DNA from: Candidatus Bathyarchaeota archaeon
GTDB lineage: Archaea > Thermoproteota > Bathyarchaeia > Bathyarchaeales > Bathycorpusculaceae
Direction: 5' to 3'
DNA: 64,000 nt
Assembly: GCA_963815095.1 (NCBI GenBank)
Contig: CAWFFH010000003.1
Span: forward strand, 1,088,001 to 1,152,000
The translations under genes were made by a program, and so were the position numbers. Within the stretch, counting starts at the first letter, position 1. The number at the start of each line of letters is the position of its first letter. The notes below the pieces were generated by a model. The model was not told where the DNA came from. It saw nothing but the letters and a program-made list of their open reading frames with translations, and made no database searches. Below are positions 29,016-58,894 of the stretch, one piece after another.

Positions 29016-30080
29016 TCAACAGATTCTTGGTACTGGATCGCCAACTGGTTTTGCGATTATTCTTTTGCCACCCACCAAAGTTTGCATCGCTACTCCCTTG
29101 AATTCGGAGGTGATTTCGCCGATTATTTGTGCATCCTTGCCCTCTTTGGTCTGCTTTAAGAACGCGAGTACTTCTTCGGTTTTTTGGTGAACAGCGCCAA
29201 TTATGATTTTGCCCTCATTGCCAATTTCTAAGGGGTCTAGGCCAAGCATTTCGCATGCAGTTTGTACGTCGCTTCGGATTGGGACCTTGTCTTCATGGAT
29301 TAGGATGCCTATTTTTGATTTTTCGGTCCATTCGTTTAGGGCGTCGGCTAAGCCTCCTCGGGTGGGATCTTTCATTGCGACAACGCCGCCGACATTGCCC
29401 AGCAAACTTTGAATCATTCGGTTAAGCGGCTTCACATCCGACTTTATTTCACTGCCAAACTTTAAGCCCTGCTGTGCCGAAAGCACTGCTAAACCATGGT
29501 CTCCGATTGTGCCTGACAATATGATTTTGTCGCCGACTGCAAGGTTAGAATCAAGTGCCCAGCGGGCTTTAAGTTCACGATATTTCCTGGCAACTTGAAG
29601 GTTACTCTCGAGAGCTGGAGTTCGCCTGCCTATGCCTGAAACATTCATAACACATCCGCCTAGACTGCCCTTCTCCACAACTTTCGTATCACCCGTAACT
29701 ATGCCAACGCCCGCTTCAATGCAGGCTTGTCGCATGCTACCAAGGATAAGCTTCAAATCCGATAGTAACAAACCCTCCTCAAGGATGAGTCCGCAAGCCA
29801 ACGCATAAGGCTCCGCGCCCAAGCACGAAATATCGTTAACAGTACCTGAAATGGATAGACGCCCGATGTCGCCGCCTGGGAAAAATATGGGTTTAACGGC
29901 GTGGGAGTCGCTTTTGAAAACTATATCTCCAATGACTGCTGCGTCATCCATGGCTTCCAATGGAACTTCGGCTTCGTTGACTAATCCGCCAAAATATTTT
30001 ACTATGTAGTTTTTGACGAGGTCATGCATTACTGAGCCGCCCGCGCCATGCAGCATTGTGATTTTCTCGATTTTATCCAT
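29016..30080 (-). CDS. hypE: Carbamoyl dehydratase HypE
   Basis: HGAGG, FPGGDIG, GDTKVVE, KDPTRGG, C-terminal PRIC. Confidence 0.96.
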   Translation of the reverse strand: MDKIEKITMLHGAGGSVMHDLVKNYIVKYFGGLVNEAEVPLEAMDDAAVIGDIVFKSDSHAVKPIFFPGGDIGRLSISGTVNDISCLGAEPYALACGLILEEGLLLSDLKLILGSMRQACIEAGVGIVTGDTKVVEKGSLGGCVMNVSGIGRRTPALESNLQVARKYRELKARWALDSNLAVGDKIILSGTIGDHGLAVLSAQQGLKFGSEIKSDVKPLNRMIQSLLGNVGGVVAMKDPTRGGLADALNEWTEKSKIGILIHEDKVPIRSDVQTACEMLGLDPLEIGNEGKIIIGAVHQKTEEVLAFLKQTKEGKDAQIIGEITSEFKGVAMQTLVGGKRIIAKPVGDPVPRIC

Positions 30081-45881: not shown

Positions 45882-46009
45882 AACCCCCAAATGTTTTTCT
45901 TTAAAATTAAAGAACGATTTCGTGACCTATTTAGAGTCTAAATAAGTGAAAATGGTTATTAACAAGAAACATGTACGCTTAGACTTAGAGCGGTTAAGAG
46001 GAAAATATA

Positions 46010-46525
46010 ATGTCTATCGATCTCCTGGCAACACTAGCAATCATGGGAATTGCAGCTGGAATTGCTTTCTTAAACTCTGGCATAAACAGGGTTTTAATCA
46101 ACTACTTCATCGGCTGGGAACAATACCGCGTCATGCAGAAAGAAATGGCTGAATATCGTTCAGAAACAATGGCGGCCATGCGTGCGAACGATAAAAAACA
46201 AGTTGAAAAACTCAAAAAGAAAGATTCACAGATAAAAAATATGCAAGCAAAAATGATGAAACCTCAAATTGTCCAGTTCGGAATATCTTTTGTTTACCTT
46301 ATTGTTTGGTTTTTAGTGTTAACGCCTACTTTTCATAATGCTCCTATGGCTTTGATTCCTGGCATTGGTACAATTGCTAATGCTCAAACAATTACAAATG
46401 GCGTTGCGTTAACAATCCCTAACGCAATTCCAGTGTTCTACTGGTACCCCATCTGCTCTCTTTTCTTTGGCCTACTTTCTTCACGCATAATTGGCATAAT
46501 GCCAATTGAACAAGGACCTATATAG
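46010..46525 (+). CDS. EMC3/TMCO1 (DUF106) family Oxa1-superfamily insertase
   Basis: TM, coiled coil, two TMs; FYWYPICS motif; usual position between secY and cmk. Confidence 0.85.
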   Translation: MSIDLLATLAIMGIAAGIAFLNSGINRVLINYFIGWEQYRVMQKEMAEYRSETMAAMRANDKKQVEKLKKKDSQIKNMQAKMMKPQIVQFGISFVYLIVWFLVLTPTFHNAPMALIPGIGTIANAQTITNGVALTIPNAIPVFYWYPICSLFFGLLSSRIIGIMPIEQGPI

Positions 46526-47160
46526 TGCTGAAAACAGGTGAACGCCAAATGGCTAAACAACAAGAAAACTGCGTTTCCCCCAAAAAAACTGTAATTTGCA
46601 TATCTGGATTGGCTGGAACCGGAAAAAGTACGCTCTCCAAAAAACTCGCTGAGAAATACCAACTGCGATACTTTTCTGGCGGAGACGTTTTGAAAGAGTT
46701 GGCCCAGCAAGAGGGTTACGATGTGTCTATTCAGGGGTGGTGGGAAAGTCCGGCAGGCTTAAAATTTCTTAGCGAGCGAGCAAACGACCCTAAATTTGAC
46801 AAGGCTGTTGATGATAAGCTTTTAGAGCATGCTCAGCAAGGAAACGTTCTTTTGGACAGTTGGACTATGCCTTGGCTATTAAAGGATGGCTTTAAAATCT
46901 GGCTGGAAGCGTCGTTCGAAAGAAGAGCTGCAAGAGTTGCCGTTAGAGATGGGTTGACTGTTGCTGAAGCTTTTGATGTGTTGAAGGAAAAAGAGGCGCG
47001 GACTAAAGCTATTTACAAAGCGCTGTATGGTTTTGGTTTAGGTGAAGATTTCAAGCCTTTTGACTTCATTTTAGACACTGATAATTTGAGCGCAAATGAA
47101 GTATTCGAGGTCCTGTGCAAAGTAATAGATAACGTGGCTATTTCTTTCGATAGTGTTTAA
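46525..47160 (+). CDS. cmk: Cytidylate kinase (archaeal type)
   Basis: ISGLAGTGKST P-loop, FDKAVD, KIWLEAS...RAARV..RD. Confidence 0.88.
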   Translation: MLKTGERQMAKQQENCVSPKKTVICISGLAGTGKSTLSKKLAEKYQLRYFSGGDVLKELAQQEGYDVSIQGWWESPAGLKFLSERANDPKFDKAVDDKLLEHAQQGNVLLDSWTMPWLLKDGFKIWLEASFERRAARVAVRDGLTVAEAFDVLKEKEARTKAIYKALYGFGLGEDFKPFDFILDTDNLSANEVFEVLCKVIDNVAISFDSV

Positions 47161-47274
47161 TCTTTTGTGAAATAGAACATTCTTCTATAACACAGTTTCA
47201 GCTGATTTAATAACTACAAGCAAGCAAATTAGCCATATGTCGTAAGCATATAACGCGAATGGGCTGGGCTGTAG

Positions 47275-47655
47275 TTGAAGAATTTAAACCGATTAGTAAC
47301 AATTTTCTTAGCAGAAACAATAATTCTAATCCTTATAACGTCCTATCGATTAATCAACAGCAGCCTATGCATCGCCAACCTCTTAATCTTTAATACTTTT
47401 TTTATTACACTATTTTTTCAACTTAACGGCAGTTTCAACCTTAAAATGGGCATATTAGCAGCAGGTAACTTCCTTGGATTACTTTGGAACCTATTTTTCT
47501 ATTACTTCTCTTTAGCAAGTCATAGTATTTTCAATATATCCTTCGATGTTTTCTTTATGATAGTTTATCCCATCTTGAACCTGATGTGGATGGTTCCCTT
47601 TTGGTCGTTGAGCTTGAGTCTTTTACCCAAACTACAACTTTCTAAAACTACTTAA
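47275..47655 (+). CDS. Hypothetical four-TM membrane protein
   Basis: Hydrophobic ORF 13 bp upstream of the GT2 gene. Confidence 0.6.
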   Translation: MKNLNRLVTIFLAETIILILITSYRLINSSLCIANLLIFNTFFITLFFQLNGSFNLKMGILAAGNFLGLLWNLFFYYFSLASHSIFNISFDVFFMIVYPILNLMWMVPFWSLSLSLLPKLQLSKTT

Positions 47656-47668
47656 TGGGGTTTGTGAA

Positions 47669-48946
47669 ATGTTAGTAGAAATAATAAACTTATTTTTCGT
47701 ATTTTCAGCATTAATTATAAGTGCTTATCTTATACGTCACTATTTTTTCACGCTATTCATTCTGCGGAGTCTAAAGAACTTGCCAAAGGAGGAAGTTTCT
47801 AGCCGTGACAATTATGAACCATCGGTTTCAATTCTTATCCCGGCTCATAACGAAGACCAAGTAATTGGCAAACTGCTACAGAAAATGGCTGAACTGTTAT
47901 ATCCGCATAGCAAACTGGAAATTATAATGATAGATGACGCTTCAACTGATAGAACAGGGCAAATCGCAGACGAGATTTCAAAACAATATCCATTCATCAA
48001 AGTGTTGCACAGAACCAGCCAAGAGGGCGGTAAGGGAAAATCTTCGGCTATGAATGCCGGGTTAAAGATAGCAAAAGGCGAAATTGTACTTTGCTTCGAC
48101 GCAGATTATCTCCCACATCCCGATGTAGTTAAGAGACTTGTAAAAAAGTTCGCCGACCCAACCGTCGGTGCCGTTCAGGGCAGACCCGTTGTATTAAATG
48201 AACCACAAAATATCCTAACTCGCATAATCGCTTTAGAACGTATAGGTGGCTACCGAGTCGATCAAGAAGCACGTGATGCTTTAGGTCTTGTGCCGCAATT
48301 TGGTGGTACAGTTGGGGGATTTAGGCGATGCATTGTGGATGAATTTGGTGGTTTTGACGAATCAATGATTACTGAGGACACCGATTTAACTTTCCACATT
48401 TATCTTGCGGGCTATAAAATTCGCTATTGTGGAGACGCAGAATGTTACGAGGAAGCTGTAGACTCTTGGAAGGCTTATTGGCGTCAAAGACACAGATGGG
48501 CAAAAGGACACATGCAAGTTTGTCTTAAACATGAGCTTAAGGTTATTCGAAGCAAGAAAATGAAGTTAAAAGAGAAAATTGATGGCTTGCTTTTATTGAA
48601 CATTTATTTTATGCCGCTTTTGACTATTTTTTCGTTTTTTGCTGGACTTTTGCTCATCTTGACTGGTTCACCAATAATTGAGTACCTTTGGTTAGCGGTG
48701 ATTATATCTTTTTACAGTTTCGTTGGAAATTATGCGCCCTTCTTTGAGATTGGAATAGGTGTGTATTTAGATGACAGAAAACGGGTTCAATGGCTAGCCC
48801 CATTATTGATTTTTTCTTTTATCTATAACATACTTATCTGCGGAAAAGCTTTCTTTGATCTGTTAACAGATAAATTACTACGTCGCAAAAGCAATTGGAA
48901 TAAAACAGAGCATCTAGGAAGGGGAAATCGTTATATTGGGAATTAA
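47669..48946 (+). CDS. Processive GT2 glycosyltransferase (cellulose synthase/PgaC-like)
   Basis: DDASTD, FDAD, TEDTD, QRHRW motifs plus C-terminal TMs. Confidence 0.9.
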   Translation: MLVEIINLFFVFSALIISAYLIRHYFFTLFILRSLKNLPKEEVSSRDNYEPSVSILIPAHNEDQVIGKLLQKMAELLYPHSKLEIIMIDDASTDRTGQIADEISKQYPFIKVLHRTSQEGGKGKSSAMNAGLKIAKGEIVLCFDADYLPHPDVVKRLVKKFADPTVGAVQGRPVVLNEPQNILTRIIALERIGGYRVDQEARDALGLVPQFGGTVGGFRRCIVDEFGGFDESMITEDTDLTFHIYLAGYKIRYCGDAECYEEAVDSWKAYWRQRHRWAKGHMQVCLKHELKVIRSKKMKLKEKIDGLLLLNIYFMPLLTIFSFFAGLLLILTGSPIIEYLWLAVIISFYSFVGNYAPFFEIGIGVYLDDRKRVQWLAPLLIFSFIYNILICGKAFFDLLTDKLLRRKSNWNKTEHLGRGNRYIGN

Positions 48947-48969
48947 GTGATAATGCTTTTTGATATTGA

Positions 48970-49176
48970 ATGATCTCAAATATAACTCTCTTCATTGTGA
49001 CCTTAATTGGTATGGCTTTGACAATTTTGATAATGTTTCTGCCCACAATTATTGAGTTAAGAAAACCTCGCGATGCTGGACCAAGATTAATAACAGAGTC
49101 CTTTACGTCAGCACAGCCTCTTAATCTTAAAACATCTTCAGACGACAAAGACGAGTTAAAAAAGACAGCTAATTAG
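48970..49176 (+). CDS. Small single-TM protein
   Basis: TM followed by FLPTIIELRKPRDAGPRLI. Confidence 0.55.
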   Translation: MISNITLFIVTLIGMALTILIMFLPTIIELRKPRDAGPRLITESFTSAQPLNLKTSSDDKDELKKTAN

Positions 49177-49189
49177 CTATTTTGAGCTA

Positions 49190-50236
49190 CTAATTTTTTT
49201 TGAAAAGTAACTTTGCATTTTTCCATTGGTCTTTAGCTAGTGATATATTTCCGTATGGGCTTCCGTGAAGCGAATAGAATACGTAGCAGAGATAGTTGCA
49301 TTGAGTGCATTGGTGATAGTTTTTTCTTAATTGTTTGAATTCTGGACTTTTCCATTTTTGAGTTAAATCAAAGATTGACCCTGCAAAGTTGTGGCTGTGG
49401 CATCCTGCAACTCTGCCCAAATGGTCAATGACTAAAAACTGGTTTAGTGCTTGGCATTTCCACGATCTTTTGTTGTCTTCTTCGTAGATGCTTCGAAGTG
49501 TTTCAAGCAATTTATCGGTCATGAGAATTTTTTTGTTTTTCTTTTTCATCTCGATAAGCGAGTTGCAGAGGTTAACCATTGCTTTTTTGTCTGTTATTAC
49601 AAATTCGTCATTTGCTCTTCCCAGCTTAAACAACTGTTTGCTGTCAGCAGATGTATCGTATGAGTAGAGACTATACCAGACTGGAATACCTTTTTCGGTG
49701 AAGTGGTTTGTTAGGTCAACGATTTCATAAAGGTTCTTTTGAGAAATTGTTGGAGTTACACTAACTTTTATGCCTTCATTGTGGAGGGTTTCAACGGCTT
49801 GAGTTGCATTTTTCCAAGCGCCCGGAACTGATTTGATGTAATCGTTTTTTGCTTCATCCAGACTATCAATTGAGATTGCAACGAAATCCACTTTTCTTAA
49901 TGCATCAAGTTTTTTTGCAGCCATACTTCCATTATCATAAACAGTTGTAACAAACAATTTTGATGCATAATTGATTATTTCGCCGATGTCATCTCGAAGT
50001 AGCGGGTCTCCGCCTGAGAGGACAAGCTCAATTACACCAATTTTTTTTAGAATATCTAAGCCTTTCTTTATTTCGTCGGTTGCAAGTTCTCTTTGATCTT
50101 GTTCTTTCCAAACGGTGCATCCACGGCATTGATAGTTGCATTTTCTTGTTACTAGCCATTGTGCATGATGAGGTTTGCCAGAAGCAAGCGAACGCGCCGC
50201 AATTGATGCTGCTTTTTTGAAACCAGACGTCAACAA
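49190..50236 (-). CDS. Radical SAM protein with C-terminal Cys cluster (SPASM/twitch-like)
   Basis: CNYQCRGC, SGGDPLLR, ISIDS, C-terminal C...GC...CTQCNYLC. Confidence 0.88.
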   Translation of the reverse strand: MLTSGFKKAASIAARSLASGKPHHAQWLVTRKCNYQCRGCTVWKEQDQRELATDEIKKGLDILKKIGVIELVLSGGDPLLRDDIGEIINYASKLFVTTVYDNGSMAAKKLDALRKVDFVAISIDSLDEAKNDYIKSVPGAWKNATQAVETLHNEGIKVSVTPTISQKNLYEIVDLTNHFTEKGIPVWYSLYSYDTSADSKQLFKLGRANDEFVITDKKAMVNLCNSLIEMKKKNKKILMTDKLLETLRSIYEEDNKRSWKCQALNQFLVIDHLGRVAGCHSHNFAGSIFDLTQKWKSPEFKQLRKNYHQCTQCNYLCYVFYSLHGSPYGNISLAKDQWKNAKLLFKKN

Positions 50237-50321
50237 GTATCACTAGCCGATTAATTGTTATTACCTATCTCGGGTAGGAACTATAAAAACCATTATAAAA
50301 CTAAGGTTCTCGTATGTTGTT

Positions 50322-51338
50322 TCATGTGCTTTGACGAGACAGTGCAATCCACAGATGGTCTGAGGTTGGTCTTGGTAATATCTCTGGCGAATCATCCTTG
50401 TGAATGATTATGCGTTTGTTTGGGGTTGGGTTGAATTCGCCGATGACATCAGCGTATATGTGTTCTTGGCCGAGTGAGTCGATAATTTTATTTGTGGCTT
50501 GTGGGTCGGCGGCGATAAGTAGTGCTCCTGAACTGATAAGTTGCAGTGGGTCAATTTCGTAAAACCTGCAGATTTTAGCGGTTTCAGGTTCAATAGTTAT
50601 TTTCTCTTCAAACACGCGTACGCCTAAGCCTGCTGCGTCCGCCATTTCGTGAATACCGTTTAAGATTCCGCCTTCAGTTGGGTCGTGCATGGCATGTACT
50701 CCACCTGCTCTGTAAGCGGTTAAGGCATCTTTTACGATGCTGATTTGTTTGTAGAAACCTTTAGCGCTATCCAACAAGGTGGAGGTGAAAGTTTTTGTGA
50801 GCTGCACTTCCCGGTCAGAAGCTAAGATAGCTGTGCCCTCAATTCCTGCGCTCTTCGTCAAAATTAGTTTGTCGCCTGCTTTGGTGCCAGCGGCAGTAAC
50901 GTATTTGCCTTTTTCGGTTAAACCCATGATGCAGCCCACCACAATCGGGTTCTCTAAGCCGGGTGTGGATTCGCAGTGTCCGCCCACAATAGCAATGCCC
51001 AACTCTTTTGCAGCTTTGTGCATTTGGGTACTGATGGTTTCAACGATTTTGCTGTCCGCGTTCTCTGGAAGCATTATGCATGAGAAGAAAAACGCGGGTT
51101 CCACGCCGAAAGTGGCAACATCGTTGGCGTTTACGTTTATGGCTTCCCATCCGACTCGCTCAACCGCACCAGTTATGGGGTCCATAGAGACTATAGCGTT
51201 CTTATTTCCAAAATCTAAAACGGCTCCGTCCACACCTGCGGCGGGTCCCAAAATAACTTCGCTACGGGCGGTGCCGAGGTTTTTGAAAACTACATCTTTT
51301 AGGATGTCTATGGGAATTTTTCCAGGTGGAAGCTTCAT
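50322..51338 (-). CDS. AIR synthase (PurM/HypE/ThiL/SelD superfamily) protein of unknown function
   Basis: DPITGA, NANDVA, IVGGHCE, AMHDPTEGG, ISSGALL; lacks the HypE PRIC tail. Confidence 0.85.
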   Translation of the reverse strand: MKLPPGKIPIDILKDVVFKNLGTARSEVILGPAAGVDGAVLDFGNKNAIVSMDPITGAVERVGWEAINVNANDVATFGVEPAFFFSCIMLPENADSKIVETISTQMHKAAKELGIAIVGGHCESTPGLENPIVVGCIMGLTEKGKYVTAAGTKAGDKLILTKSAGIEGTAILASDREVQLTKTFTSTLLDSAKGFYKQISIVKDALTAYRAGGVHAMHDPTEGGILNGIHEMADAAGLGVRVFEEKITIEPETAKICRFYEIDPLQLISSGALLIAADPQATNKIIDSLGQEHIYADVIGEFNPTPNKRIIIHKDDSPEILPRPTSDHLWIALSRQST

Positions 51339-51351
51339 GCGTATTCCTCTG

Positions 51352-51879
51352 TTAAAGCTGGCTTTTAAGCTGTGGGAAAATACGCAGTACTGCGTGCATG
51401 ATTGGTACTGCAATTATCAGGCCAATGAGCATTTGAACGATGTTGAAAGGAACTTCTAGAATCGCCACAGTACTTCCTAAGATAAGTGTTTCATAAAGGA
51501 AGTATCCTAAAACCATCTCAAACCCTCCAATAACAATGGATATGGTGGCGCTTAAAGTGATGCTTTTAGTCTTCTGTACTATTTTCTTGTATAGGATGCC
51601 GACGAGTAAACCTTCAATTGCTTTTATAGTGAAGGTTCCGGGGGCATACTGCGGAGCTACAAGTGCATCTGCTATTGTTGCTCCTGCACCTGCTATGGCA
51701 CCTACAAAAGGCCCGAACAGCAATGCAGCTACGTAAATGAGAGTCTCTCCGAGATTGAAGTATCCACTGGTAGCAGGAATAGGAATCACAAACAGTAGTG
51801 TGGCTGCTGCGACTAGTGCTGCAAAGATTGCGGCTACTGCAATTTTGAATGGTGTGGTTGTGTTAAATTTGGATTGCAT
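51352..51879 (-). CDS. ECF transporter S component
   Basis: AIFAALV, IPATSGYFNLGE, ALLFGP, AD...YAPGTFTIKAIEG, NIVQ. Confidence 0.88.
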   Translation of the reverse strand: MQSKFNTTTPFKIAVAAIFAALVAAATLLFVIPIPATSGYFNLGETLIYVAALLFGPFVGAIAGAGATIADALVAPQYAPGTFTIKAIEGLLVGILYKKIVQKTKSITLSATISIVIGGFEMVLGYFLYETLILGSTVAILEVPFNIVQMLIGLIIAVPIMHAVLRIFPQLKSQL

Positions 51880-51893
51880 GTTTTTCGCCTTAG

Positions 51894-51927
51894 TATAGTT
51901 GTGACTATAGTATAGTTGCAGCTATAC
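51894..51927. promoter_or_regulatory. Two tandem palindromic operators TATAGT-N4-RCTATA
   Basis: TATAGT-TGTG-ACTATA (51894-51909) and TATAGT-TGCA-GCTATA (51911-51926), between a TATA-like TTTATTA and the ECF start codon. Confidence 0.7.
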
Positions 51928-51952
51928 CATCTAATAAATATTCCCAAAACAA

Positions 51953-53365
51953 TCACATCAGCAACTGAATCTCATCAAACGCCGCCAAAACTTTTTTCCC
52001 ACGCTCCGAAACACGGAAAAACTTCTTCCCACCAACCTCGTAACCAATCACCAACCCCTTATCTGACAGTTCGTTGAGGTGTTGGTAGATAGCGGCGCGC
52101 GTCATTATCTTGCCCAATTGTTTCCACAAATCATAACCATACGTATCTTTCTCATTGAGAATCTTGAGAATTTTCTGTTTCGTACTTACCGCGAGCCCTA
52201 AGCCTATCGTCTTCTGTTTCTTGTTCAAAGCTTGCAACACATCAGTGGCTTTAAGACCGCTCCCCGTAATTAGGCACACAACGCTACCGTCTTTTGAGAT
52301 TCTTTTTTCATCTACAAGCTTTTTCAATGCTGCGACAGTTATTGCACTGGCTGGTTCTGCAAACACGCCCTCTAGTTTTGCGATCTGGAGTTCTGCAATC
52401 AAAATGTCTTGATCGGACACGGTTAAGGAAAGCCCTCCTGACTCAGTTATTGCTTTGGAGGCAAGTTCGCATTGAAGTGGATTTCCTACGAGGATTGCAA
52501 GGGCTCGAGTGGATGGATTGCAAGTTTTATTATTTTCAGAACCTTTGGCCGCGTTCACTATAGCAGCACATCCGTCAGGTTGAACTCCAACCATCTTTGG
52601 CAAGGTCTTCGTTAAGCCGCGTTGTTTTAGTTCTTTGAATCCTTTCCAAACTGAGTAAATGGTGCCCCCGCTTCCCATGGAAACTATCATCCACTCGGGA
52701 ACCTCATATTGTTCCATAATTTCGAAAGAAATGGTTTTTTGGGCTTCAATCACCAGCGGGTTAAGTTCCGCAGTTGCTTGATACCAACCTGTTTCTTTTG
52801 CTACAGCCTTTGCTTTTTGGATTGAGTCGTCAATGATTTCGCCGTATTCCTCAATTATCGCATCGTAGGCAAGTATCTGGGCAAGTTTTCCCACATCCAC
52901 TTCTTTTGGAACTATTACATGACAATTTAATCCAGCTTTTGCCGAGTAAGCGGCCAGAGATGCTCCCATGTTGCCGTTAGTTGCGCATACCAGTGTATCT
53001 GAAAGGAGGTCTATAGCATTAGAGGTTAGGAGTGCAGCAGCCCGGTCTCGATAGGAGTTGGTTGGGTTTCGTGTTTCATCCTTCAAATAAAGTTTAGTTA
53101 ATCCCATTGTTTTCGCAAGTCTCTCAGCCTTATGAAGGGGTGTTCCACCCTCTCCTAAACTGACCATTTGCCTGACAGCAGGAAGCATTTGCCTATACCT
53201 CCAAAACCTAAGTGTTCCAGAAAACTTGACCGATCGTTTCTGGGGAACGTCTGCCGTGTACTCCAATATTTTACCGCATTTTTCGCAGTTACTTCTAAGT
53301 GGGTAAACTGGAAATTTGGTGCCACAATGACTGCATTGAAGGTTTTCGTTGGACTCTTGGAGCAT
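51953..53365 (-). CDS. Threonine-synthase-like domain (catalytic Lys replaced by Arg) fused to PadR-like wHTH; putative transcription factor
   Basis: Zn ribbon, SLGEGGTPL, NPTNSYRDR instead of NPTGSFKDR, EPASA, ITGSGLK; C-terminal YGYDLW...IYQHLNELSDKGLV...KKFFRVSERG. Confidence 0.8.
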   Translation of the reverse strand: MLQESNENLQCSHCGTKFPVYPLRSNCEKCGKILEYTADVPQKRSVKFSGTLRFWRYRQMLPAVRQMVSLGEGGTPLHKAERLAKTMGLTKLYLKDETRNPTNSYRDRAAALLTSNAIDLLSDTLVCATNGNMGASLAAYSAKAGLNCHVIVPKEVDVGKLAQILAYDAIIEEYGEIIDDSIQKAKAVAKETGWYQATAELNPLVIEAQKTISFEIMEQYEVPEWMIVSMGSGGTIYSVWKGFKELKQRGLTKTLPKMVGVQPDGCAAIVNAAKGSENNKTCNPSTRALAILVGNPLQCELASKAITESGGLSLTVSDQDILIAELQIAKLEGVFAEPASAITVAALKKLVDEKRISKDGSVVCLITGSGLKATDVLQALNKKQKTIGLGLAVSTKQKILKILNEKDTYGYDLWKQLGKIMTRAAIYQHLNELSDKGLVIGYEVGGKKFFRVSERGKKVLAAFDEIQLLM

Positions 53366-53428
53366 TTTTGGTTAAATCCAGTCAACTATTATTGTGTTCC
53401 TCCATTTCTCTCTTATCCAAAATTTGGT

Positions 53429-53450
53429 TACTAAATAGTAACTATAGTTG
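53429..53450. promoter_or_regulatory. Related palindrome AACTATAGTT upstream of the ThrC-wHTH gene
   Basis: Perfect 10-bp palindrome at 53440-53449 sharing TATAGTTG with the ECF operators. Confidence 0.45.
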
Positions 53451-53546
53451 TTTCCCAAGAGCATTACAAAAGTAGCTAATGCGAGGGGGAAAATCTAAAT
53501 GTGACTTCTTCAAAGAATAATGTAGAACTAAGAGAGTTGCGTAAAA

Positions 53547-53951
53547 ATGAGCACTGTTAGAGAAGACCCAATTAAAATGCATAAAGATGCAATCACGTTG
53601 ATGGAAAATGGCAAGTACGCTGAGGCAAAAGACCTCTTTATGAAAGTGGCAGAACTCTATTATAAGGGACAGAACTATTTTGGCGCGGCAGAAATGAATT
53701 ATAAAGCAGGCGAATGTAGTTTTGCGCTAAAAGACTATACAAAAGCTGTAGAATTTTTCACCAAATCTGCTGACATCTCATTTGGCAAAGGCTTTGAGCG
53801 TTATGGCGTTAGTGCATTAGAGCAAGCGCGTGATAGCCAGAAATCATTGGGTAACGCTAAAGAAGTAGCGGAACTGGAAAAGAAGATTAGGGAAATCAAC
53901 GACAAACAAAAAGAGCCTGAAGGCGAATCTTCGTTCTCTGTATTTTCCTAA
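53547..53951 (+). CDS. TPR/SNAP-like helical repeat protein
   Basis: GKYAEAKDLF, AGECSFALKDYTKAVEFF. Confidence 0.75.
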   Translation: MSTVREDPIKMHKDAITLMENGKYAEAKDLFMKVAELYYKGQNYFGAAEMNYKAGECSFALKDYTKAVEFFTKSADISFGKGFERYGVSALEQARDSQKSLGNAKEVAELEKKIREINDKQKEPEGESSFSVFS

Positions 53952-53957
53952 ACTTGT

Positions 53958-54743
53958 TTAGTTACCCCAAGTTTTCCTTTTTTTGATTTTTTGCTGCAGA
54001 ATACTGTAAGTCAGGCTTGGGGCAGCAAAATCAGTTGAGGTTTTGATTTCAGGGGTAAAATCGACGATCCCTAACATGTAAGTGGGATGCTTTTCTAACT
54101 CAACTTCGCTGGTGTAGGGTGTTTTTGTGAATCGAAGCACCGTGTTTGCTTTTTGGGTTGTTATTTCTTGTAGGGTAATGTTTCTTCGGTTGCTCTCATG
54201 CGATAGATATGTTGCGATTATGATGATTCGGTGTTTTTTTGCGAAATTTGCAAGATAACTCATGATTTGGCTGTAAACCGCTTTTGCTTCTTGGTCATCC
54301 ACGTTGTCATTCAAAAATGAACTCACCATATCAGAGATCACTACAAGTTTTGCTCCAGATGTTTCTACGGTCTCTGATAGTTTCTCCATTATTAGAGAAG
54401 TCAGTCGATATGCTGTATATGCGCGCATACTGATTACTCGTCCGAGCGCTGCTTTGGGGTCTAGTTGTTGAAGTTCTGCAGCTTGCGCTATGTTTGATAG
54501 TGAAGAACTGTTTGAGCAATCAATGAAAATAACATCGCTTTCTAGTCCGCCAAGTTTCATTGGTAATTGTGCACGGACGCAAAGCTCAGACATTAATGCC
54601 GTAACTGATTGAGAGCCATAGACGACTGCGAAGTCTCCTGCTTTGAATCCTGGAAAAATCTGCTCTATTTCTGGAACCTTAAAAGTAAACTGTTTAGTAG
54701 TTGTCTGTATTATTGTCGCTTTAAGCATAAGTTTTTGTTGCAT
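53958..54743 (-). CDS. Inactivated RadA/Rad51-like protein (no Walker A)
   Basis: LCVRAQLP..LGGL...VIFID, RAYTAY, LVVISD; VYGSQSVT where GxxxxGKT is expected. Confidence 0.75.
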   Translation of the reverse strand: MQQKLMLKATIIQTTTKQFTFKVPEIEQIFPGFKAGDFAVVYGSQSVTALMSELCVRAQLPMKLGGLESDVIFIDCSNSSSLSNIAQAAELQQLDPKAALGRVISMRAYTAYRLTSLIMEKLSETVETSGAKLVVISDMVSSFLNDNVDDQEAKAVYSQIMSYLANFAKKHRIIIIATYLSHESNRRNITLQEITTQKANTVLRFTKTPYTSEVELEKHPTYMLGIVDFTPEIKTSTDFAAPSLTYSILQQKIKKRKTWGN

Positions 54744-54902
54744 CGTTTCTTCACAGAAAACCAGTTTACCCTGATTTGCCTATTTAAAGCGTCGATGCAG
54801 CAACATAGCCGAATAGTGGAGGGGTCAGTGAAAGTGAATTTGGGAGCAATCAATTATAGTCTCAAACACCTTTAGACTAATACGCGTTTTTTGGGGTAAA
54901 TT

Positions 54903-56597
54903 ATGTTTACATCGTTCAAATCTCTCTCTGAACTCCTTGAAAGAGTAGAGGGAACAAAGAAACGGCTTGAAATCATAGAGCACACCACAAATTATCTGAA
55001 AACGATTGGCGCCGATGAAATCGAAGCTGCCACTAACATGATGGTGGGACGAGCTTTCCCCAAGTTCAGCCAAAAAACTCTCGACGTAAGCTGGTCAACC
55101 CTCACCAGCATCTTTGAGCGAATAAGCTTCTTTGACTGGGAACTTTTTCGAGAAGCCATGGCGAAAACAGGCGATATCGGTTCAGCCACCAAAGTAGTTC
55201 TTGAACAAACAAAAGCAAAGAAACAAACTCAACTAACACAGAAGTCCCTAAGCATAACCGAAGTTAGAACCACATTAGAAGCCGTTGCACGAGCTCAGGG
55301 TTCAGGTTCCAGAACCAAAAAAGGACGTCTAATTACCACACTCATGAGCCAAGCCTCACCAGTCGAAGCCAAGTATCTCGTCAAAATCTTCACAGGTGAA
55401 ATGCGTACAGGACTTCATGAAGGTTTAATGGAACAAGCGGTTGCAGGAGCGTTTAACGTTCCGTTCCAGAATGTGCAGCATGTCAGCATGGTCTTGGGAG
55501 ATATTGGCGAGGTTGCCGCTGTCCTTAAGACTCAAGGAGCAGAGGGATTGGAGAAGGCAGGTTTTAGTATCTTTAGACCAGTCAAACTCATGCTTGCACA
55601 GACTGCACAATCAGTTCAGGAAGCTTTAGCTGAGCATGACGGAAAAACCGCATTCGAATACAAGTATGACGGCGCTAGAGTTCAAATTCACAAGCAAAAC
55701 AATAGGGTGAAAATTTTCAGCAGACGACTGAGTGACGTTACGGCGAGCTTGCCTGAAGTTGTGGAAGCCGTAAAACAAAACATCAAAGCACAATCTACAA
55801 TCGTTGAAGGAGAAGTAATCGCGCTCGACAGTGCTGGCTATCCCATCGCGTTCCAGCACCTGATGCGTCGTTTTAAACGGATCCGAGGAGTTGCTGACAT
55901 GGCAGAGAAGATGCCTATAACCCTCTACCTCTTCGATATCCTCTATCTAAACGGGAAAAGCCTAATTGCCGAGCCTTACAACCAGCGTCGTCAAATCCTC
56001 GCCCAAAACGTCGGGGAAATTTCCTTAACCAATCAAATAATAACTGAACAGCCCGCCCAAGCCGCAGGTTTTCTCAAAGAAGCTCTTGATGCTGGACACG
56101 AAGGTTTAATAGCGAAAAAACTCGACAGCCCTTATACTCCTGGACGCCGGGGCAAACGGTGGCTTAAAATCAAAACTGTTCTTGAACCCTTAGACCTTGT
56201 TATCACAGCCGCCGAGTATGGTTACGGGCGCAGGAAAGGCTGGCTCTCAGATTACTATCTTGCGGCAAGAGACTCTAAGACAGGCGAGTTTTTGAATCTT
56301 GGAAAGACGTTTAAGGGGTTAACTGAAGCCGAAATCATCGAGTTAACCCAGAGACTAAAAGAATCCGCCGTAAGCCAAGAGGGGCACCGGGTGATTGTTC
56401 TTCCTAAAATCGTTGTAGAAGTTGCTTATAACGAAATCCAGCAAAGCCCCCGCTACAAAAGCCAAATGGCGCTGCGGTTTGCAAGAATTACACGCATTAG
56501 AGATGACAAAACTCCGGAGGAAGTTGACACGGTTGAGCGGGTTAGGGAAATATATGATAGGCAGTTTCGGAATAAAGGCAAATATAACACTGATTAG
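54903..56597 (+). CDS. lig: ATP-dependent DNA ligase
   Basis: EYKYDGARVQIH, EGEV, EGLIAK, WLKIK, ALRFARI..IRDDK. Confidence 0.95.
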   Translation: MFTSFKSLSELLERVEGTKKRLEIIEHTTNYLKTIGADEIEAATNMMVGRAFPKFSQKTLDVSWSTLTSIFERISFFDWELFREAMAKTGDIGSATKVVLEQTKAKKQTQLTQKSLSITEVRTTLEAVARAQGSGSRTKKGRLITTLMSQASPVEAKYLVKIFTGEMRTGLHEGLMEQAVAGAFNVPFQNVQHVSMVLGDIGEVAAVLKTQGAEGLEKAGFSIFRPVKLMLAQTAQSVQEALAEHDGKTAFEYKYDGARVQIHKQNNRVKIFSRRLSDVTASLPEVVEAVKQNIKAQSTIVEGEVIALDSAGYPIAFQHLMRRFKRIRGVADMAEKMPITLYLFDILYLNGKSLIAEPYNQRRQILAQNVGEISLTNQIITEQPAQAAGFLKEALDAGHEGLIAKKLDSPYTPGRRGKRWLKIKTVLEPLDLVITAAEYGYGRRKGWLSDYYLAARDSKTGEFLNLGKTFKGLTEAEIIELTQRLKESAVSQEGHRVIVLPKIVVEVAYNEIQQSPRYKSQMALRFARITRIRDDKTPEEVDTVERVREIYDRQFRNKGKYNTD

Positions 56598-56624
56598 CAA
56601 CACACAATTTGGAGATGACTAAAG

Positions 56625-57665
56625 TTGGAGTCGGCAGAGAAGAAAGCGTTTGCTAAGGAGTTCTATAGTCGCCAGACTATATTGAAAGAATTGGGCGAGA
56701 TAGGTCAGCAAAAGCTTGCAAAGTCTAAAGTTGCAATAGTGGGTGCTGGTGGACTCGGTACCGTATCCTCGCTCTACCTCGCGTTGGCTGGCGTCGGCTA
56801 CATCCGCCTTATCGACCAAGACACAATAGAAATTCACAACCTTCACCGCCAAATCCTCTACAACCCAGACGACCTCCATTACCCCAAAACAGAGGTTGCT
56901 GCTAAAAGGCTGGAAAAACAGAATCCGCTCGTAAACGTTGAAGCAGTGCCCGAAAACGTGAATGCAGGCAATGTTGAACGGCTTTTGCAAGGGGTGGATT
57001 GCGTGGTTGATGGATTAGATAATATGGTCACCCGCTACCTTGTAAATCGCGCTTGCGTTAAACTGAAAATACCCTACGTTTTCGGTGCAGCCATCGGTAT
57101 CGAAGGCAACCTATCAGTTTTCGCCCCGCCTGAAACGGGATGTTTGGAATGTTTGATGCCTAACCTCTCTGACTCAGATTTGCTGACATGCAATACCCGC
57201 GGCGTCTTGGGGGCTACAACGGGAATAATAGGCGCCTTGCAAGCGATGGAAACCATAAAACTCCTAATAGGCGTAGGCTCCACGTTGAAGAACAAGTTGA
57301 TGGTTTGCGACTTTAGCGACATGGACTTCACAACCATAGATATCTCAAAGAGCAATCGTTGCCCCGTATGTCATGGCGACGTAGCATCGATTGCGGGTGG
57401 CGAGCGGTTGGTTTGGCTCTGCGGCAAGGAAACCGCTAACATCAACCCTAAAAACCCTCTAAAACTTAACCTTGACGAAGTTTATCTACAAGTTAGTGAG
57501 CAATTCAAAATGCGTCTGAAATCGCGGTTAGCATTAATGTTTAATTACAAAACCTATGAAGTTAGCCTCTTCAACGGTGGACGTATGCTCGTAAAAGGCG
57601 TTGCAGACGAAAAAACCGCTTTGACAGTTTACAGAGAAATTTTGAAGAAAATAAATGTTGGCTAA
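56625..57665 (+). CDS. HesA/MoeB/ThiF (UbaA-like E1) adenylyltransferase
   Basis: YSRQ, GAGGLG, NLHRQ, DGLDN, CLEC, CPVC. Confidence 0.9.
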   Translation: MESAEKKAFAKEFYSRQTILKELGEIGQQKLAKSKVAIVGAGGLGTVSSLYLALAGVGYIRLIDQDTIEIHNLHRQILYNPDDLHYPKTEVAAKRLEKQNPLVNVEAVPENVNAGNVERLLQGVDCVVDGLDNMVTRYLVNRACVKLKIPYVFGAAIGIEGNLSVFAPPETGCLECLMPNLSDSDLLTCNTRGVLGATTGIIGALQAMETIKLLIGVGSTLKNKLMVCDFSDMDFTTIDISKSNRCPVCHGDVASIAGGERLVWLCGKETANINPKNPLKLNLDEVYLQVSEQFKMRLKSRLALMFNYKTYEVSLFNGGRMLVKGVADEKTALTVYREILKKINVG

Positions 57666-58894
57666 TGGTTTAGCATTTTTATCAGAGCTGTGGCGTCATT
57701 TACCCATCCATCGATGACTTTGAGGTTTTCCTCAAGTTTCTGTTGGTTCTTTTCAAATCCCCTGAGCTGTCCCTGCTGATGCACGTAGTAGCTTGCTAAT
57801 TGATTTAATGGCTCAATGAACTCTGTCGTTGAAGCTCCTGTTTTCAGGCTGTTTCCTAAAGCTTTCAGAGTGGTTTGCATCTCATCAATTGATGATCCTG
57901 TTGTTTTCTTGAAGTCTCGGCTTACCCATTGGCGTTCGAAAAGGTTGCGTTTTTTCCATCCTTCGGACTGCTCTAGATAAGTTTTCAGTACTGTTTGGTA
58001 GAGCTCAGAGGTGTTTCTGCTTTCAGATGTTATAGCTTTTTGTATTTCTTCGGGGTTGCTCGGCTTTTGTTCTTCCGTTTTGGTTCCTTCTTGATCTGTC
58101 AGCGGTATTCCTGCTTCACGCAGCACTTGGATGGAGCTGGTTTCTCGTCCATGGTACTTTTTGGCAAGAGCAATCGCGATGGCAAAGCCTGCACCTGCGG
58201 CTTCGGGAGAAATCTGGGCGTTTTTGTTTAGTTCAAAGAGCTGCTCTAAACTCATACCCATCAGCGAGGCTACTTTTCCTCCGCCTTCAACAAATCCGGG
58301 GGTTTTAGAGATTCCTGGTCCGATGGTGAATGCATAGACTCCAGTGTCTTCGACTTCGGCGGATATAGTATTTGATAGTTCAACTTGGGCTGTCTTGAAA
58401 ACCTCATAGGCTCCCATGTAAGGTGCCGCTCCAGAAGAGGAAACGCAAACGAACACGCCGTGCTTGCGGTCAATCATGGCTGGCAGAAACTTTCTTGCCA
58501 ATGCCACTGGTCCCCGTAAATTCACTCGGTAGCTAAAATCCCAAGATTCAACAGGTGTGTTTTTGACTGCACCCATTGGAAACACAGTGGCGTTATTTAG
58601 GATAACATCAACTTTGCCGAATTTTTTCAACGATGTCTCGGCGAGTTTGTCGATGTCTTTCTCGTTGCCAATGTCCGTTTTGATAAAGAACGTTTTTCCT
58701 GAGCCAAATTCTTTGTTAATAATTTCTTCGGCGGCTTTGCCATTTTTCTCATCGATTTCAGCGATAATCACATTTGCGCCAAGCCAAACAAGGCTTCTAG
58801 CAGCTTCAAAACCGATTCCTCGTCCAGCGCCAGTTACGAGGACGACTTCTCCCTTAAATGAATCCTGAGTTAGATTTCCTTTGCTGACAATCAT
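57662..58894 (-). CDS. SDR oxidoreductase with C-terminal helical extension
   Basis: TGAGRGIG, NNA, YEVFK (YxxxK). Confidence 0.85.
   Translation of the reverse strand: MIVSKGNLTQDSFKGEVVLVTGAGRGIGFEAARSLVWLGANVIIAEIDEKNGKAAEEIINKEFGSGKTFFIKTDIGNEKDIDKLAETSLKKFGKVDVILNNATVFPMGAVKNTPVESWDFSYRVNLRGPVALARKFLPAMIDRKHGVFVCVSSSGAAPYMGAYEVFKTAQVELSNTISAEVEDTGVYAFTIGPGISKTPGFVEGGGKVASLMGMSLEQLFELNKNAQISPEAAGAGFAIAIALAKKYHGRETSSIQVLREAGIPLTDQEGTKTEEQKPSNPEEIQKAITSESRNTSELYQTVLKTYLEQSEGWKKRNLFERQWVSRDFKKTTGSSIDEMQTTLKALGNSLKTGASTTEFIEPLNQLASYYVHQQGQLRGFEKNQQKLEENLKVIDGWVNDATALIKMLNH

Follow-up and report, generated by a model that had tools for sequence, protein, structure and literature searches.

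A lysine-less threonine synthase paralog fused to a PadR winged helix as a candidate local regulator of vitamin B6 uptake in Bathyarchaeia

Transcription factors that sense their signal through a domain derived from an enzyme are already known, among them MocR/PdxR, RbkR and ThiR. MocR regulators such as PdxR and GabR are one-component proteins in which a pyridoxal phosphate (PLP)-enzyme fold, a fold-type I aminotransferase, has been reused as a sensor and fused to a winged helix, in their case an N-terminal GntR-type helix; they keep the PLP lysine. ThiR, a ThiN domain joined to a helix-turn-helix (HTH), is an archaeal vitamin regulator built on an enzyme domain and stands in for bacterial riboswitches. 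Classical PadR proteins are about 110-180 aa long and sense their ligand with their own C-terminal helix. RbkR, a riboflavin kinase with a winged HTH (wHTH), is a further archaeal local vitamin regulator, with an enzyme-domain sensor from the same pathway area, that takes the place of a riboswitch (PMC5397151), and the regulons of PdxR include pdxST, pdxK and pdxU (PMC5320631; here and below, statements drawn from the cited papers hold for the parts of them that were available). According to the available part of the latter paper, Archaea have no MocR regulators (PMC5320631). Here we analyse a gene of a Candidatus Bathyarchaeota archaeon, in a window of 64,000 nucleotides (assembly GCA_963815095.1, contig CAWFFH010000003.1, positions 1,088,001 to 1,152,000), whose product resembles MocR proteins in its plan, and whose family resembles PdxR in the kinds of target it accompanies, but which has a C-terminal PadR domain and a fold-type II threonine synthase (ThrC) domain that has lost the PLP lysine. 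It differs from RbkR and ThiR in fold and in vitamin, and, whereas the RbkR enzyme is active, its catalytic residue is gone; the available part of the RbkR paper mentions neither B6 nor threonine synthase (PMC5397151). We consider it probable that the protein is a transcription factor derived from a ThrC paralog, not an enzyme, and that it acts locally as a sensor of PLP or another B6 vitamer, probably as the repressor of a vitamin B6 uptake operon.

The minus strand from 50322 to 53365 carries three genes in a row, the first of which encodes the regulator. The parts of this gene are (pLDDT, predicted local distance difference test):

51953..53365, minus strand: regulator gene, 470 aa; a zinc ribbon followed by a ThrC-type PLP fold that lacks the catalytic Lys and by a PadR winged helix
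53276..53335, minus strand: N-terminal zinc ribbon (Cys11, Cys14, Cys27, Cys30)
52262..53164, minus strand: PLP-dependent-enzyme fold, the presumed sensor domain (aa 68-368; PALP, PF00291, E 1.3e-72)
53048..53050, minus strand: Arg106 codon CGA at the position of the PLP Schiff-base Lys, from alignment to solved ThrC
52190..52249, minus strand: flexible linker between the sensor and DNA-binding domains (aa 373-392; pLDDT <50, disordered in the model)
51983..52171, minus strand: PadR-type wHTH (aa 399-461; PF03551, 34.7 bits, cut-off 27)

As the initial annotation had anticipated, the gene would be called thrC automatically: it passes the NCBIfam thrC model TIGR00260 (206 bits against a cut-off of 167.1), and its relatives are labelled 'threonine synthase' in public sources. 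A second model, NF004170 (PRK05638, 'threonine synthase'), matches residues 9-463 of the regulator at 396 bits, below its curated cut-off of 421, which was passed in none of 14 control genomes; this model already spans the fused architecture as a threonine synthase, and the family has therefore been catalogued but misread. The protein is 40% identical to the ThrC of its own genome, with which it shares the fold and also the zinc-ribbon region found in archaeal catalytic forms, since the alignment of the two begins at residue 9 or 10. Within the ribbon, C14, C27 and C30 are invariant among 60 fused proteins and C11 is present in at least 90%. Unlike ThrC, the family lacks the Schiff-base Lys, carries a PadR domain in addition, and comes with a conserved operator and with neighbours related to B6. 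The C-terminal PadR-like wHTH proposed initially was borne out by Pfam, the PALP and PadR domains both being present in 60/60 full-length fused proteins, and its stretch YQHL (Y427, Q428, H429, L430), invariant in the fused proteins, is presumed from its position to be the recognition helix. The likeness to PadR proteins may extend to the putative operator described below, an inverted repeat as would be expected of a dimer; the difference is that an enzyme fold of 370 aa precedes the DNA-binding domain. A Pfam scan of the regulator found no GntR or aminotransferase domain, the protein combining PALP (fold type II) with a C-terminal PadR domain instead.

An AlphaFold2 model built with 60 relatives as input has a mean pLDDT of 88.9, with the winged helix well folded after the linker, and its best Foldseek matches are threonine synthases (template-modelling score 0.86 on the target); the structure comparison found the fused ThrC-PadR architecture in no solved structure. 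A homodimer model formed through the enzyme domain scored 0.83, the best of three controls reaching 0.00. For comparison, 20 of 30 proteins solved as same-chain pairs attained the mark used, as did 1 of 23 whose structures were solved with a single chain. Contact agreement between the runs was at least 72% and partner pLDDT at least 85, and the interface takes in residues 99-103 beside the cofactor motif. This pass may come from likeness, because ThrC dimers have been solved.

Fold-type II PLP enzymes require the Schiff-base Lys for catalysis. In the regulator, NPTNSYRDR at aa 100-108 aligns (HMMER) with NPTGSFKDR of the solved ThrC structures 2zsj and 2d1f, placing Arg106, the CGA codon of which had been remarked on at the outset, at the position of this Lys. 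The change proved to be a family trait. We scanned a phylum sample of 301 genomes for fused relatives, full-length examples of which turned up in several families, and took 60 full-length loci, which with the window make 61 proteins from 60 genomes; the Schiff-base column of these 61 proteins holds R in 33, L in 24, M in 2, V and I in 1 each, and K in none, whereas the unfused ThrC proteins in the same loci keep K in 5/5. The closest 120 proteins in a collection of 5.8 billion sequences all have PALP and PadR domains (120/120), and 119 of them read NPT[NHS]SYRDR. A wider search, with a profile of the 60 fused proteins against 1.84 billion cluster representatives, gave 79 fused and 71 unfused proteins among the best 150 examined. 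K is kept in 67 of the 71 unfused; the 79 fused carry L (20), I (18), R (12), V (9), M (5), T (5), F (2), K (2) or S, N, A or Y (1 each), and 2 are truncated, making Lys absent in 75 of the 77 with a readable column. When the 67 catalytic and 79 fused proteins were compared column by column, position 106 alone was conserved at 85% or more in the enzymes and at 25% or less in the fused forms. Catalytic and fused forms have N132, G231, G233, E337, T367, G368, G370 and K372 in common, each as an identical residue in at least 85% of either group, and D107-R108 is conserved in both alike; the motifs containing these residues presumably hold the cofactor, as in ThrC structures. A remodelled substrate-phosphate pocket, suspected from an alignment with bacterial ThrC, was withdrawn after comparison with the nearest catalytic relatives.

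A FastTree phylogeny of the enzyme domain built without column 106 shows the catalytic enzymes, an Arg-type clade of 21 rows (support 100) and a clade of 60 rows (support 99) in which position 106 is mostly hydrophobic; the tree was built quickly and rooted at its midpoint, which leaves unsettled whether the fusion had a single origin or several. One genome (G252) carries an Arg-type regulator with the S-component and AIR-synthase genes described below at one locus and an Ile-type paralog with its own palindrome elsewhere (L039, L066), so that the relation between the two types is not one of simple orthology. The two fused representatives with Lys, P0246 (NPTSSFKDR) and P0254 (NPTNSFKDR), look secondary rather than ancestral because they are nested in the Arg-type clade, and could be reversions or bifunctional forms. 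One of them lies close to the window protein in the tree.

These two proteins bear on the idea that the regulator is an active, bifunctional threonine synthase or other PLP enzyme with an extra DNA-binding domain. We regard this as extremely improbable. The Lys needed for fold-type II catalysis is absent in 61/61 and 75/77 fused proteins, with chemically unrelated replacements (R, L, I, V, M, T, F), and the regulator is not the sole thrC-scoring gene of its genome: as a check for a separate thrC showed, a second gene lies about 100 kb away (contig 3:1039778-1040764) and scores 370 bits, over the TIGR00260 cut-off. This second thrC has NPTGSFKDR-type relatives, and its own Lys is deduced from the 5/5 neighbouring unfused ThrC proteins in relatives. 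Support for an active enzyme comes from the TIGR00260 score of the regulator, the retained PLP-binding residues, the two Lys-bearing representatives and the precedent of RbkR, an archaeal bifunctional kinase-regulator (PMC5397151).

Downstream of the regulator gene, after a spacer of 73 nt, the same strand encodes an energy-coupling factor (ECF)-type S-component and an aminoimidazole ribonucleotide (AIR)-synthase-family enzyme (hereafter AIRS), and the spacer contains two presumed operator sites (the sites are palindromic and have no strand assigned):

51352..51879, minus strand: ECF-type S-component, presumed B6-vitamer carrier (175 aa; PdxU/PdxU2(HmpT)/RibU family; PF07155, 103.5 bits, cut-off 26.7)
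50322..51338, minus strand: AIR-synthase-family (PurM-like) ATP-using enzyme (PF00586 and PF02769)
51891..51912, no strand: proximal operator site, TACTATAGTCACAACTATACTA on the gene strand; at 29.0 bits it scores highest of all sites in the 2.69-Mb genome
51908..51929, no strand: distal operator site, TGGTATAGCTGCAACTATACTA on the gene strand; 26.9 bits, overlapping the proximal site by 5 nt

The likely start of the AIRS gene is the ATG at 51338, 13 nt past the S-component stop as first noted, although the open reading frame call reaches a TTG at 51413. The gene order recurs in relatives. Among 16 loci from the taxonomic order to which the window belongs, 15 have an S-component after the regulator, and the AIRS gene comes next in 9/16; in 80 further loci from species-representative genomes, an S-component lies downstream on the same strand in 78 and an AIRS gene in 76. 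The Arg motif was found in 75 of these 80, the other 5 being 3 contig-end cuts and 2 missed by the search pattern. By title, 79 of the 80 are Bathyarchaea, Thermoproteota or uncultured archaeon; the one titled Limnocylindrales bacterium (L105) ranks among Bathyarchaeia neighbours, which is probably a binning or labelling problem.

The tandem palindromes noticed in the initial annotation turned out to be instances of a 22-bp inverted repeat, TAGTATAGTT-NN-AACTATACTA, shared by the spacers. The proximal site ends 11 nt before the S-component ATG, and the two together span 11-50 nt before this start codon, overlapping a TATA-like sequence. With a matrix of 16 sites (2 from the window and 14 from relatives), a scan of the whole genome (2.69 Mb, 98.45% complete) gave a next best site of 15.8 bits, and the reversed genome used as a control reached 17.8; no site above control level was found in this genome outside 51891-51929, nor any at an amino-acid biosynthesis gene. 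The pair of sites in the window cannot be put down to chance. With only two high-scoring sites genome-wide, the regulator appears to be local, controlling this operon alone in this genome. A site of at least 21 bits is present in 80/80 of the further loci, some of which may also have supplied training sites for the matrix, and lies 15-56 nt past the regulator stop in 75 of them; in 4 of the other 5 it precedes a displaced S-component, and in the fifth no S-component was found. A natural control is provided by 11 related loci with S-component and AIRS genes and no regulator gene, in which no site of 20 bits or more was found (best 15.9); in 7 of these 11 genomes a whole-genome search gave no close fused match either. 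A congener with the regulator has two sites (28.5 and 29.5 bits). The operator thus tracks the presence of the regulator and is unique in the genome, and we consider it very likely that the protein is a transcription factor acting at this 22-bp sequence.

One congener without the regulator (L174, position 5554) has a degraded operator upstream of its S-component, one half of which, TAGCATAATCAGAACTATACTA, is intact (15.9 bits), suggesting that the regulator was lost recently. A palindromic stretch, CAACTATAGTTACTATTTAGTAAC, also lies at 53427-53450, about 60-85 nt upstream of the regulator start, and has ACTATAG in common with the operator; autoregulation in the window was rejected, this stretch scoring below 12 bits and not being conserved in the closest locus. 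An Rfam scan of 46000-58000 found no riboswitch or other RNA, and a scan with bacterial promoter and terminator models, which are not relevant to archaea, gave counts at or below shuffled expectation.

The link to vitamin B6 is made first by the sister clade. A scan of the 301 genomes for PLP synthase (PF01680) found matches directly beside fused regulators of the hydrophobic clade, and in one genus pdxT-pdxS stands back to back with the fused regulator in all 5 sampled genomes that have PdxS (2 of these 5 loci were fetched via the PdxS position). The spacer before pdxS contains a palindromic motif, T[AG]T[AT]TAAG-N7-[CT]TA[TCA]A[TC]AT[AT], which lies 19-29 nt before pdxS in 5/5 loci and 3-28 nt before an S-component in 6/9. 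It has 23 matches in 332,664 nt, 22 of them at a regulator start, and none in the window's genome or in loci with Arg-type regulators totalling 369 kb; when 5 whole genomes were scanned, 4 contained it a single time each, the reversed-pattern control giving 0. Because the pattern was derived from the same spacers, only its specificity counts as evidence. The same operator type at pdxS and S-component loci implies that one regulator family stands at PLP synthase or at a transporter, depending on the genome. Genomes of one genus without pdxS-pdxT (L075, L077, L078, L080, L081, L083, L086) keep the regulator with a single operator at its own start, beside a GH18-like gene.

The transporter and the gene content of the genome point the same way. 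The only solved relative of the S-component is 4HZU chain S (E 1.4e-14, about 30% identity), which is HmpT/PdxU2 of Lactobacillus brevis, a reported pyridoxamine carrier (PMC4860826), and PdxU and PdxU2 both belong to PF07155 (PMC9997740). At the HmpT pocket positions E41, W76, H84, Y120, S136, N140 and Q143 named in PMC4860826, the window S-component, also a PF07155 member, has E, Y, K, Y, E, N and Q, 4/7 being identical; across 25 orthologs, Y120 and Q143 are kept in 25/25, position 41 is E or D and position 76 aromatic in 25/25, and N140 is N in 20/25. Many of the orthologs are 243-259 aa long, against 175 aa in the window, with an insertion of about 75 residues that splits the tblastn match (L035-L040, L042, L043, L045, L047 and others). 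Neither PdxS, PdxJ nor PdxH was found in the window's genome, nor a PF08543 kinase (PdxK/ThiD) above cut-off; by known pathways the organism would be a B6 auxotroph without a salvage kinase, the hydroxymethylpyrimidine (HMP) phosphate kinase of thiamine synthesis being absent as well. It does have two EcfT genes and a PLP-dependent ThrC. PdxS is present in 3 of 33 genomes with the Arg-type regulator, compared with 140 of the 301 in the phylum sample, which is a pattern and not a statistical test because the genomes are related. Archaea have the PdxS/PdxT route only, hundreds of genomes are without predicted B6 synthesis or salvage, and an uncharacterised B6 kinase may exist (PMC9997740).

The same architecture and operator could serve a signal other than B6, the dead site binding threonine, O-phosphohomoserine or phosphoserine and the operon importing and processing another compound, for example HMP. 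The amino acid could bind by itself or through an external aldimine formed with loosely held PLP, as gamma-aminobutyric acid does in GabR. Such a ligand would suit a domain that comes from threonine synthase and still has, on its substrate side, most of the residues seen in the catalytic relatives; for HmpT, HMP was the substrate first predicted (PMC4860826), and the genome is without ThiD too. A catalytic thrC, moreover, adjoins the regulator or lies within about 6 kb in 5 of the 61 loci (L042, L045, L046, L047, L052), and in one family the Lys-bearing thrC beside the fused regulator (L045, L047, L052, also L042 and L046) appears to be a remnant of the duplication from which the regulator arose. 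No operator site was found between the regulator and the adjacent thrC in those loci, however, and thrC was rejected as the target of the regulator for this reason. Against an amino-acid signal stand also the sister clade at pdxS-pdxT, with an operator type that is the same as at S-component loci, and the whole-genome scan, with no site at amino-acid biosynthesis genes; we find this alternative unlikely. Of the two effectors put forward initially, a B6 vitamer is thus favoured by the pdxS-pdxT neighbours in the sister clade, the HmpT-like S-component and the absence of known B6 genes, and a phospho-amino acid has gained no support, no operator having been found beside an adjacent thrC. B6 or PLP is in our view the probable signal.

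From the domain structure, the loss of Lys, the gene order, the operator, the pdxS-pdxT link and the absence of known B6 genes, the following mechanism can be proposed. The ThrC-type domain, which keeps the PLP-holding residues, would bind PLP or a related phosphorylated B6 vitamer reversibly and serve as a concentration sensor; as there is no covalent tie without the Lys, its occupancy would follow the free PLP pool. Dimerisation via the enzyme fold would set two C-terminal PadR winged helices on TAGTATAGTT-NN-AACTATACTA, and since interface residues 99-103 adjoin the cofactor motif, the ligand could alter the presentation of the tethered winged helices. When B6 is plentiful, the liganded dimer would occupy both sites and block transcription of the S-component and AIRS genes, occupancy of promoter-placed, TATA-rich sites being expected to block the basal factors. 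When B6 is scarce, the regulator would leave the DNA and uptake would be switched on. The AIRS enzyme would probably process the imported compound with ATP.

The sign of this circuit may be different. If the ligand-free form binds the palindromes, whether to activate or to repress, and the ligand releases it, B6 would still be sensed with opposite or dual action. The position of an operator does not by itself fix the sign, bacterial PdxR reportedly activates pdxST at low PLP, and many PadR proteins leave DNA on ligand binding. The placement of the sites 11-50 nt before the start codon, over a TATA-like sequence, is nonetheless typical of archaeal repressors, and in the sister clade one site fills most of the spacer of about 55-65 nt between the divergent genes, which together make this alternative rather doubtful. 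We therefore think it likely that the regulator acts as a repressor, and take the liganded form as the repressing one because this is the simplest feedback logic for pdxST and for the uptake operon.

A number of observations weigh against reading the protein as a B6-responsive repressor of B6 uptake. The ligand, the DNA binding and the sign of regulation are all inferred, and genomes within one lineage are non-independent, which makes the counts look statistically stronger than they are. The operators of both types are rich in TATA and promoter-placed, and their conservation could in part be that of promoter sequence; Lys, as described above, is kept in 2/77 fused representatives. The genomes that lost pdxST retain the regulator and its own site, PdxS and the regulator-bearing uptake operon occur together in 3 genomes, and two families have the regulator after gatD-gatE, where no B6 gene is close by. 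As to the transporter, two HmpT pocket positions differ, H84 being Lys and S136 Glu in 20/25 orthologs each; to the early assignment of HmpT to HMP can be added that PF07155 also includes riboflavin carriers. The AIRS gene has no specific tie to B6: it is a core gene of the order, with an ortholog in 109 of 121 genomes, it occurs with or without the regulator and at times far from the S-component, and it coexists with ThiD-type kinases in some genomes. The transporter substrate and the AIRS reaction are accordingly offered as candidate assignments.

Two of the gatD-gatE genomes have an S-component ortholog elsewhere with a similar palindrome, TATTCAAGTT-AA-AACTTAAATA (16.6 and 14.8 bits). Even where the regulator is absent, the AIRS gene is closely paired with the S-component, which suggests that its product acts on the imported compound, and it would be an attractive candidate for the B6 kinase otherwise missing from the genome. 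Homolog and atlas searches returned only the names 'HypE' and 'AIR synthase family', and the protein scores below the curated cut-offs of HypE (107 against 251.6), ThiL (91 against 184) and SelD (70 against 125). ThiL was rejected on its score and because a true ThiL (256.7 bits) is encoded elsewhere in the genome. The idea that the AIRS enzyme and the S-component are the alpha-ribazole kinase CblS and CblT was dropped as unconfirmed, no CblS model being among the NCBIfam matches. Within the order, AIRS and PF08543 kinase genes did not replace each other cleanly, both being present in several genomes. Where the AIRS gene does not adjoin the S-component, the next gene encodes an NAD-kinase-C-domain protein (L041, L044) or a P-loop AAA_18 protein (L042), which could be alternative ATP-using partners. 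A second AIR-synthase-family gene lies in the window at 29085-30005 (minus strand) and matches the ThiL model weakly (60.7 bits).

Beyond the operon, the window contains on the same strand:

49190..50236, minus strand: Radical-SAM/SPASM gene, 85 nt downstream of the AIRS gene

This gene is found downstream on the same strand in only 23/80 related loci and is probably loosely linked and outside the unit. Divergent from the regulator, at 53547-53951 on the plus strand, is a gene for a small tetratricopeptide repeat (TPR) protein, the position of which is kept in 46/80 related loci.

Literature searches aimed at the family found no description of a ThrC-PadR regulator or of an archaeal B6 regulator; supplementary tables of PMC9997740 and PMC5320631 might list such genes. 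In its strongest form, our proposal is that the family is the missing archaeal B6 regulator and the first transcription factor with a fold-type II PLP pseudoenzyme as sensor, reading free PLP non-covalently, and that the AIRS enzyme represents a new class of B6-vitamer kinase; taken as a whole this is a long shot. Should it be true, it would explain the cofactor supply of archaea that have neither PLP synthase nor PdxK. The regulatory hypothesis itself is directly testable with one protein and one oligonucleotide, because the palindromic operator is short and has no counterpart elsewhere in the genome.

The family also has a bearing on genome annotation, since the label threonine synthase is attached to hundreds of Bathyarchaeia proteins and to at least 79 clusters at 50% identity, which inflates the predicted capacity for threonine synthesis. 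Most carriers of the regulator gene appear to be B6 auxotrophs without a known salvage kinase, a pathway hole of the kind flagged in a published survey (PMC9997740), for which the operon supplies a candidate transporter and a candidate enzyme. The regulator itself would be a clear case of an enzyme turned sensor through the loss of one residue, and the family would fill a gap in the control of B6 in archaea, where it would take the role that MocR/PdxR proteins have in bacteria.

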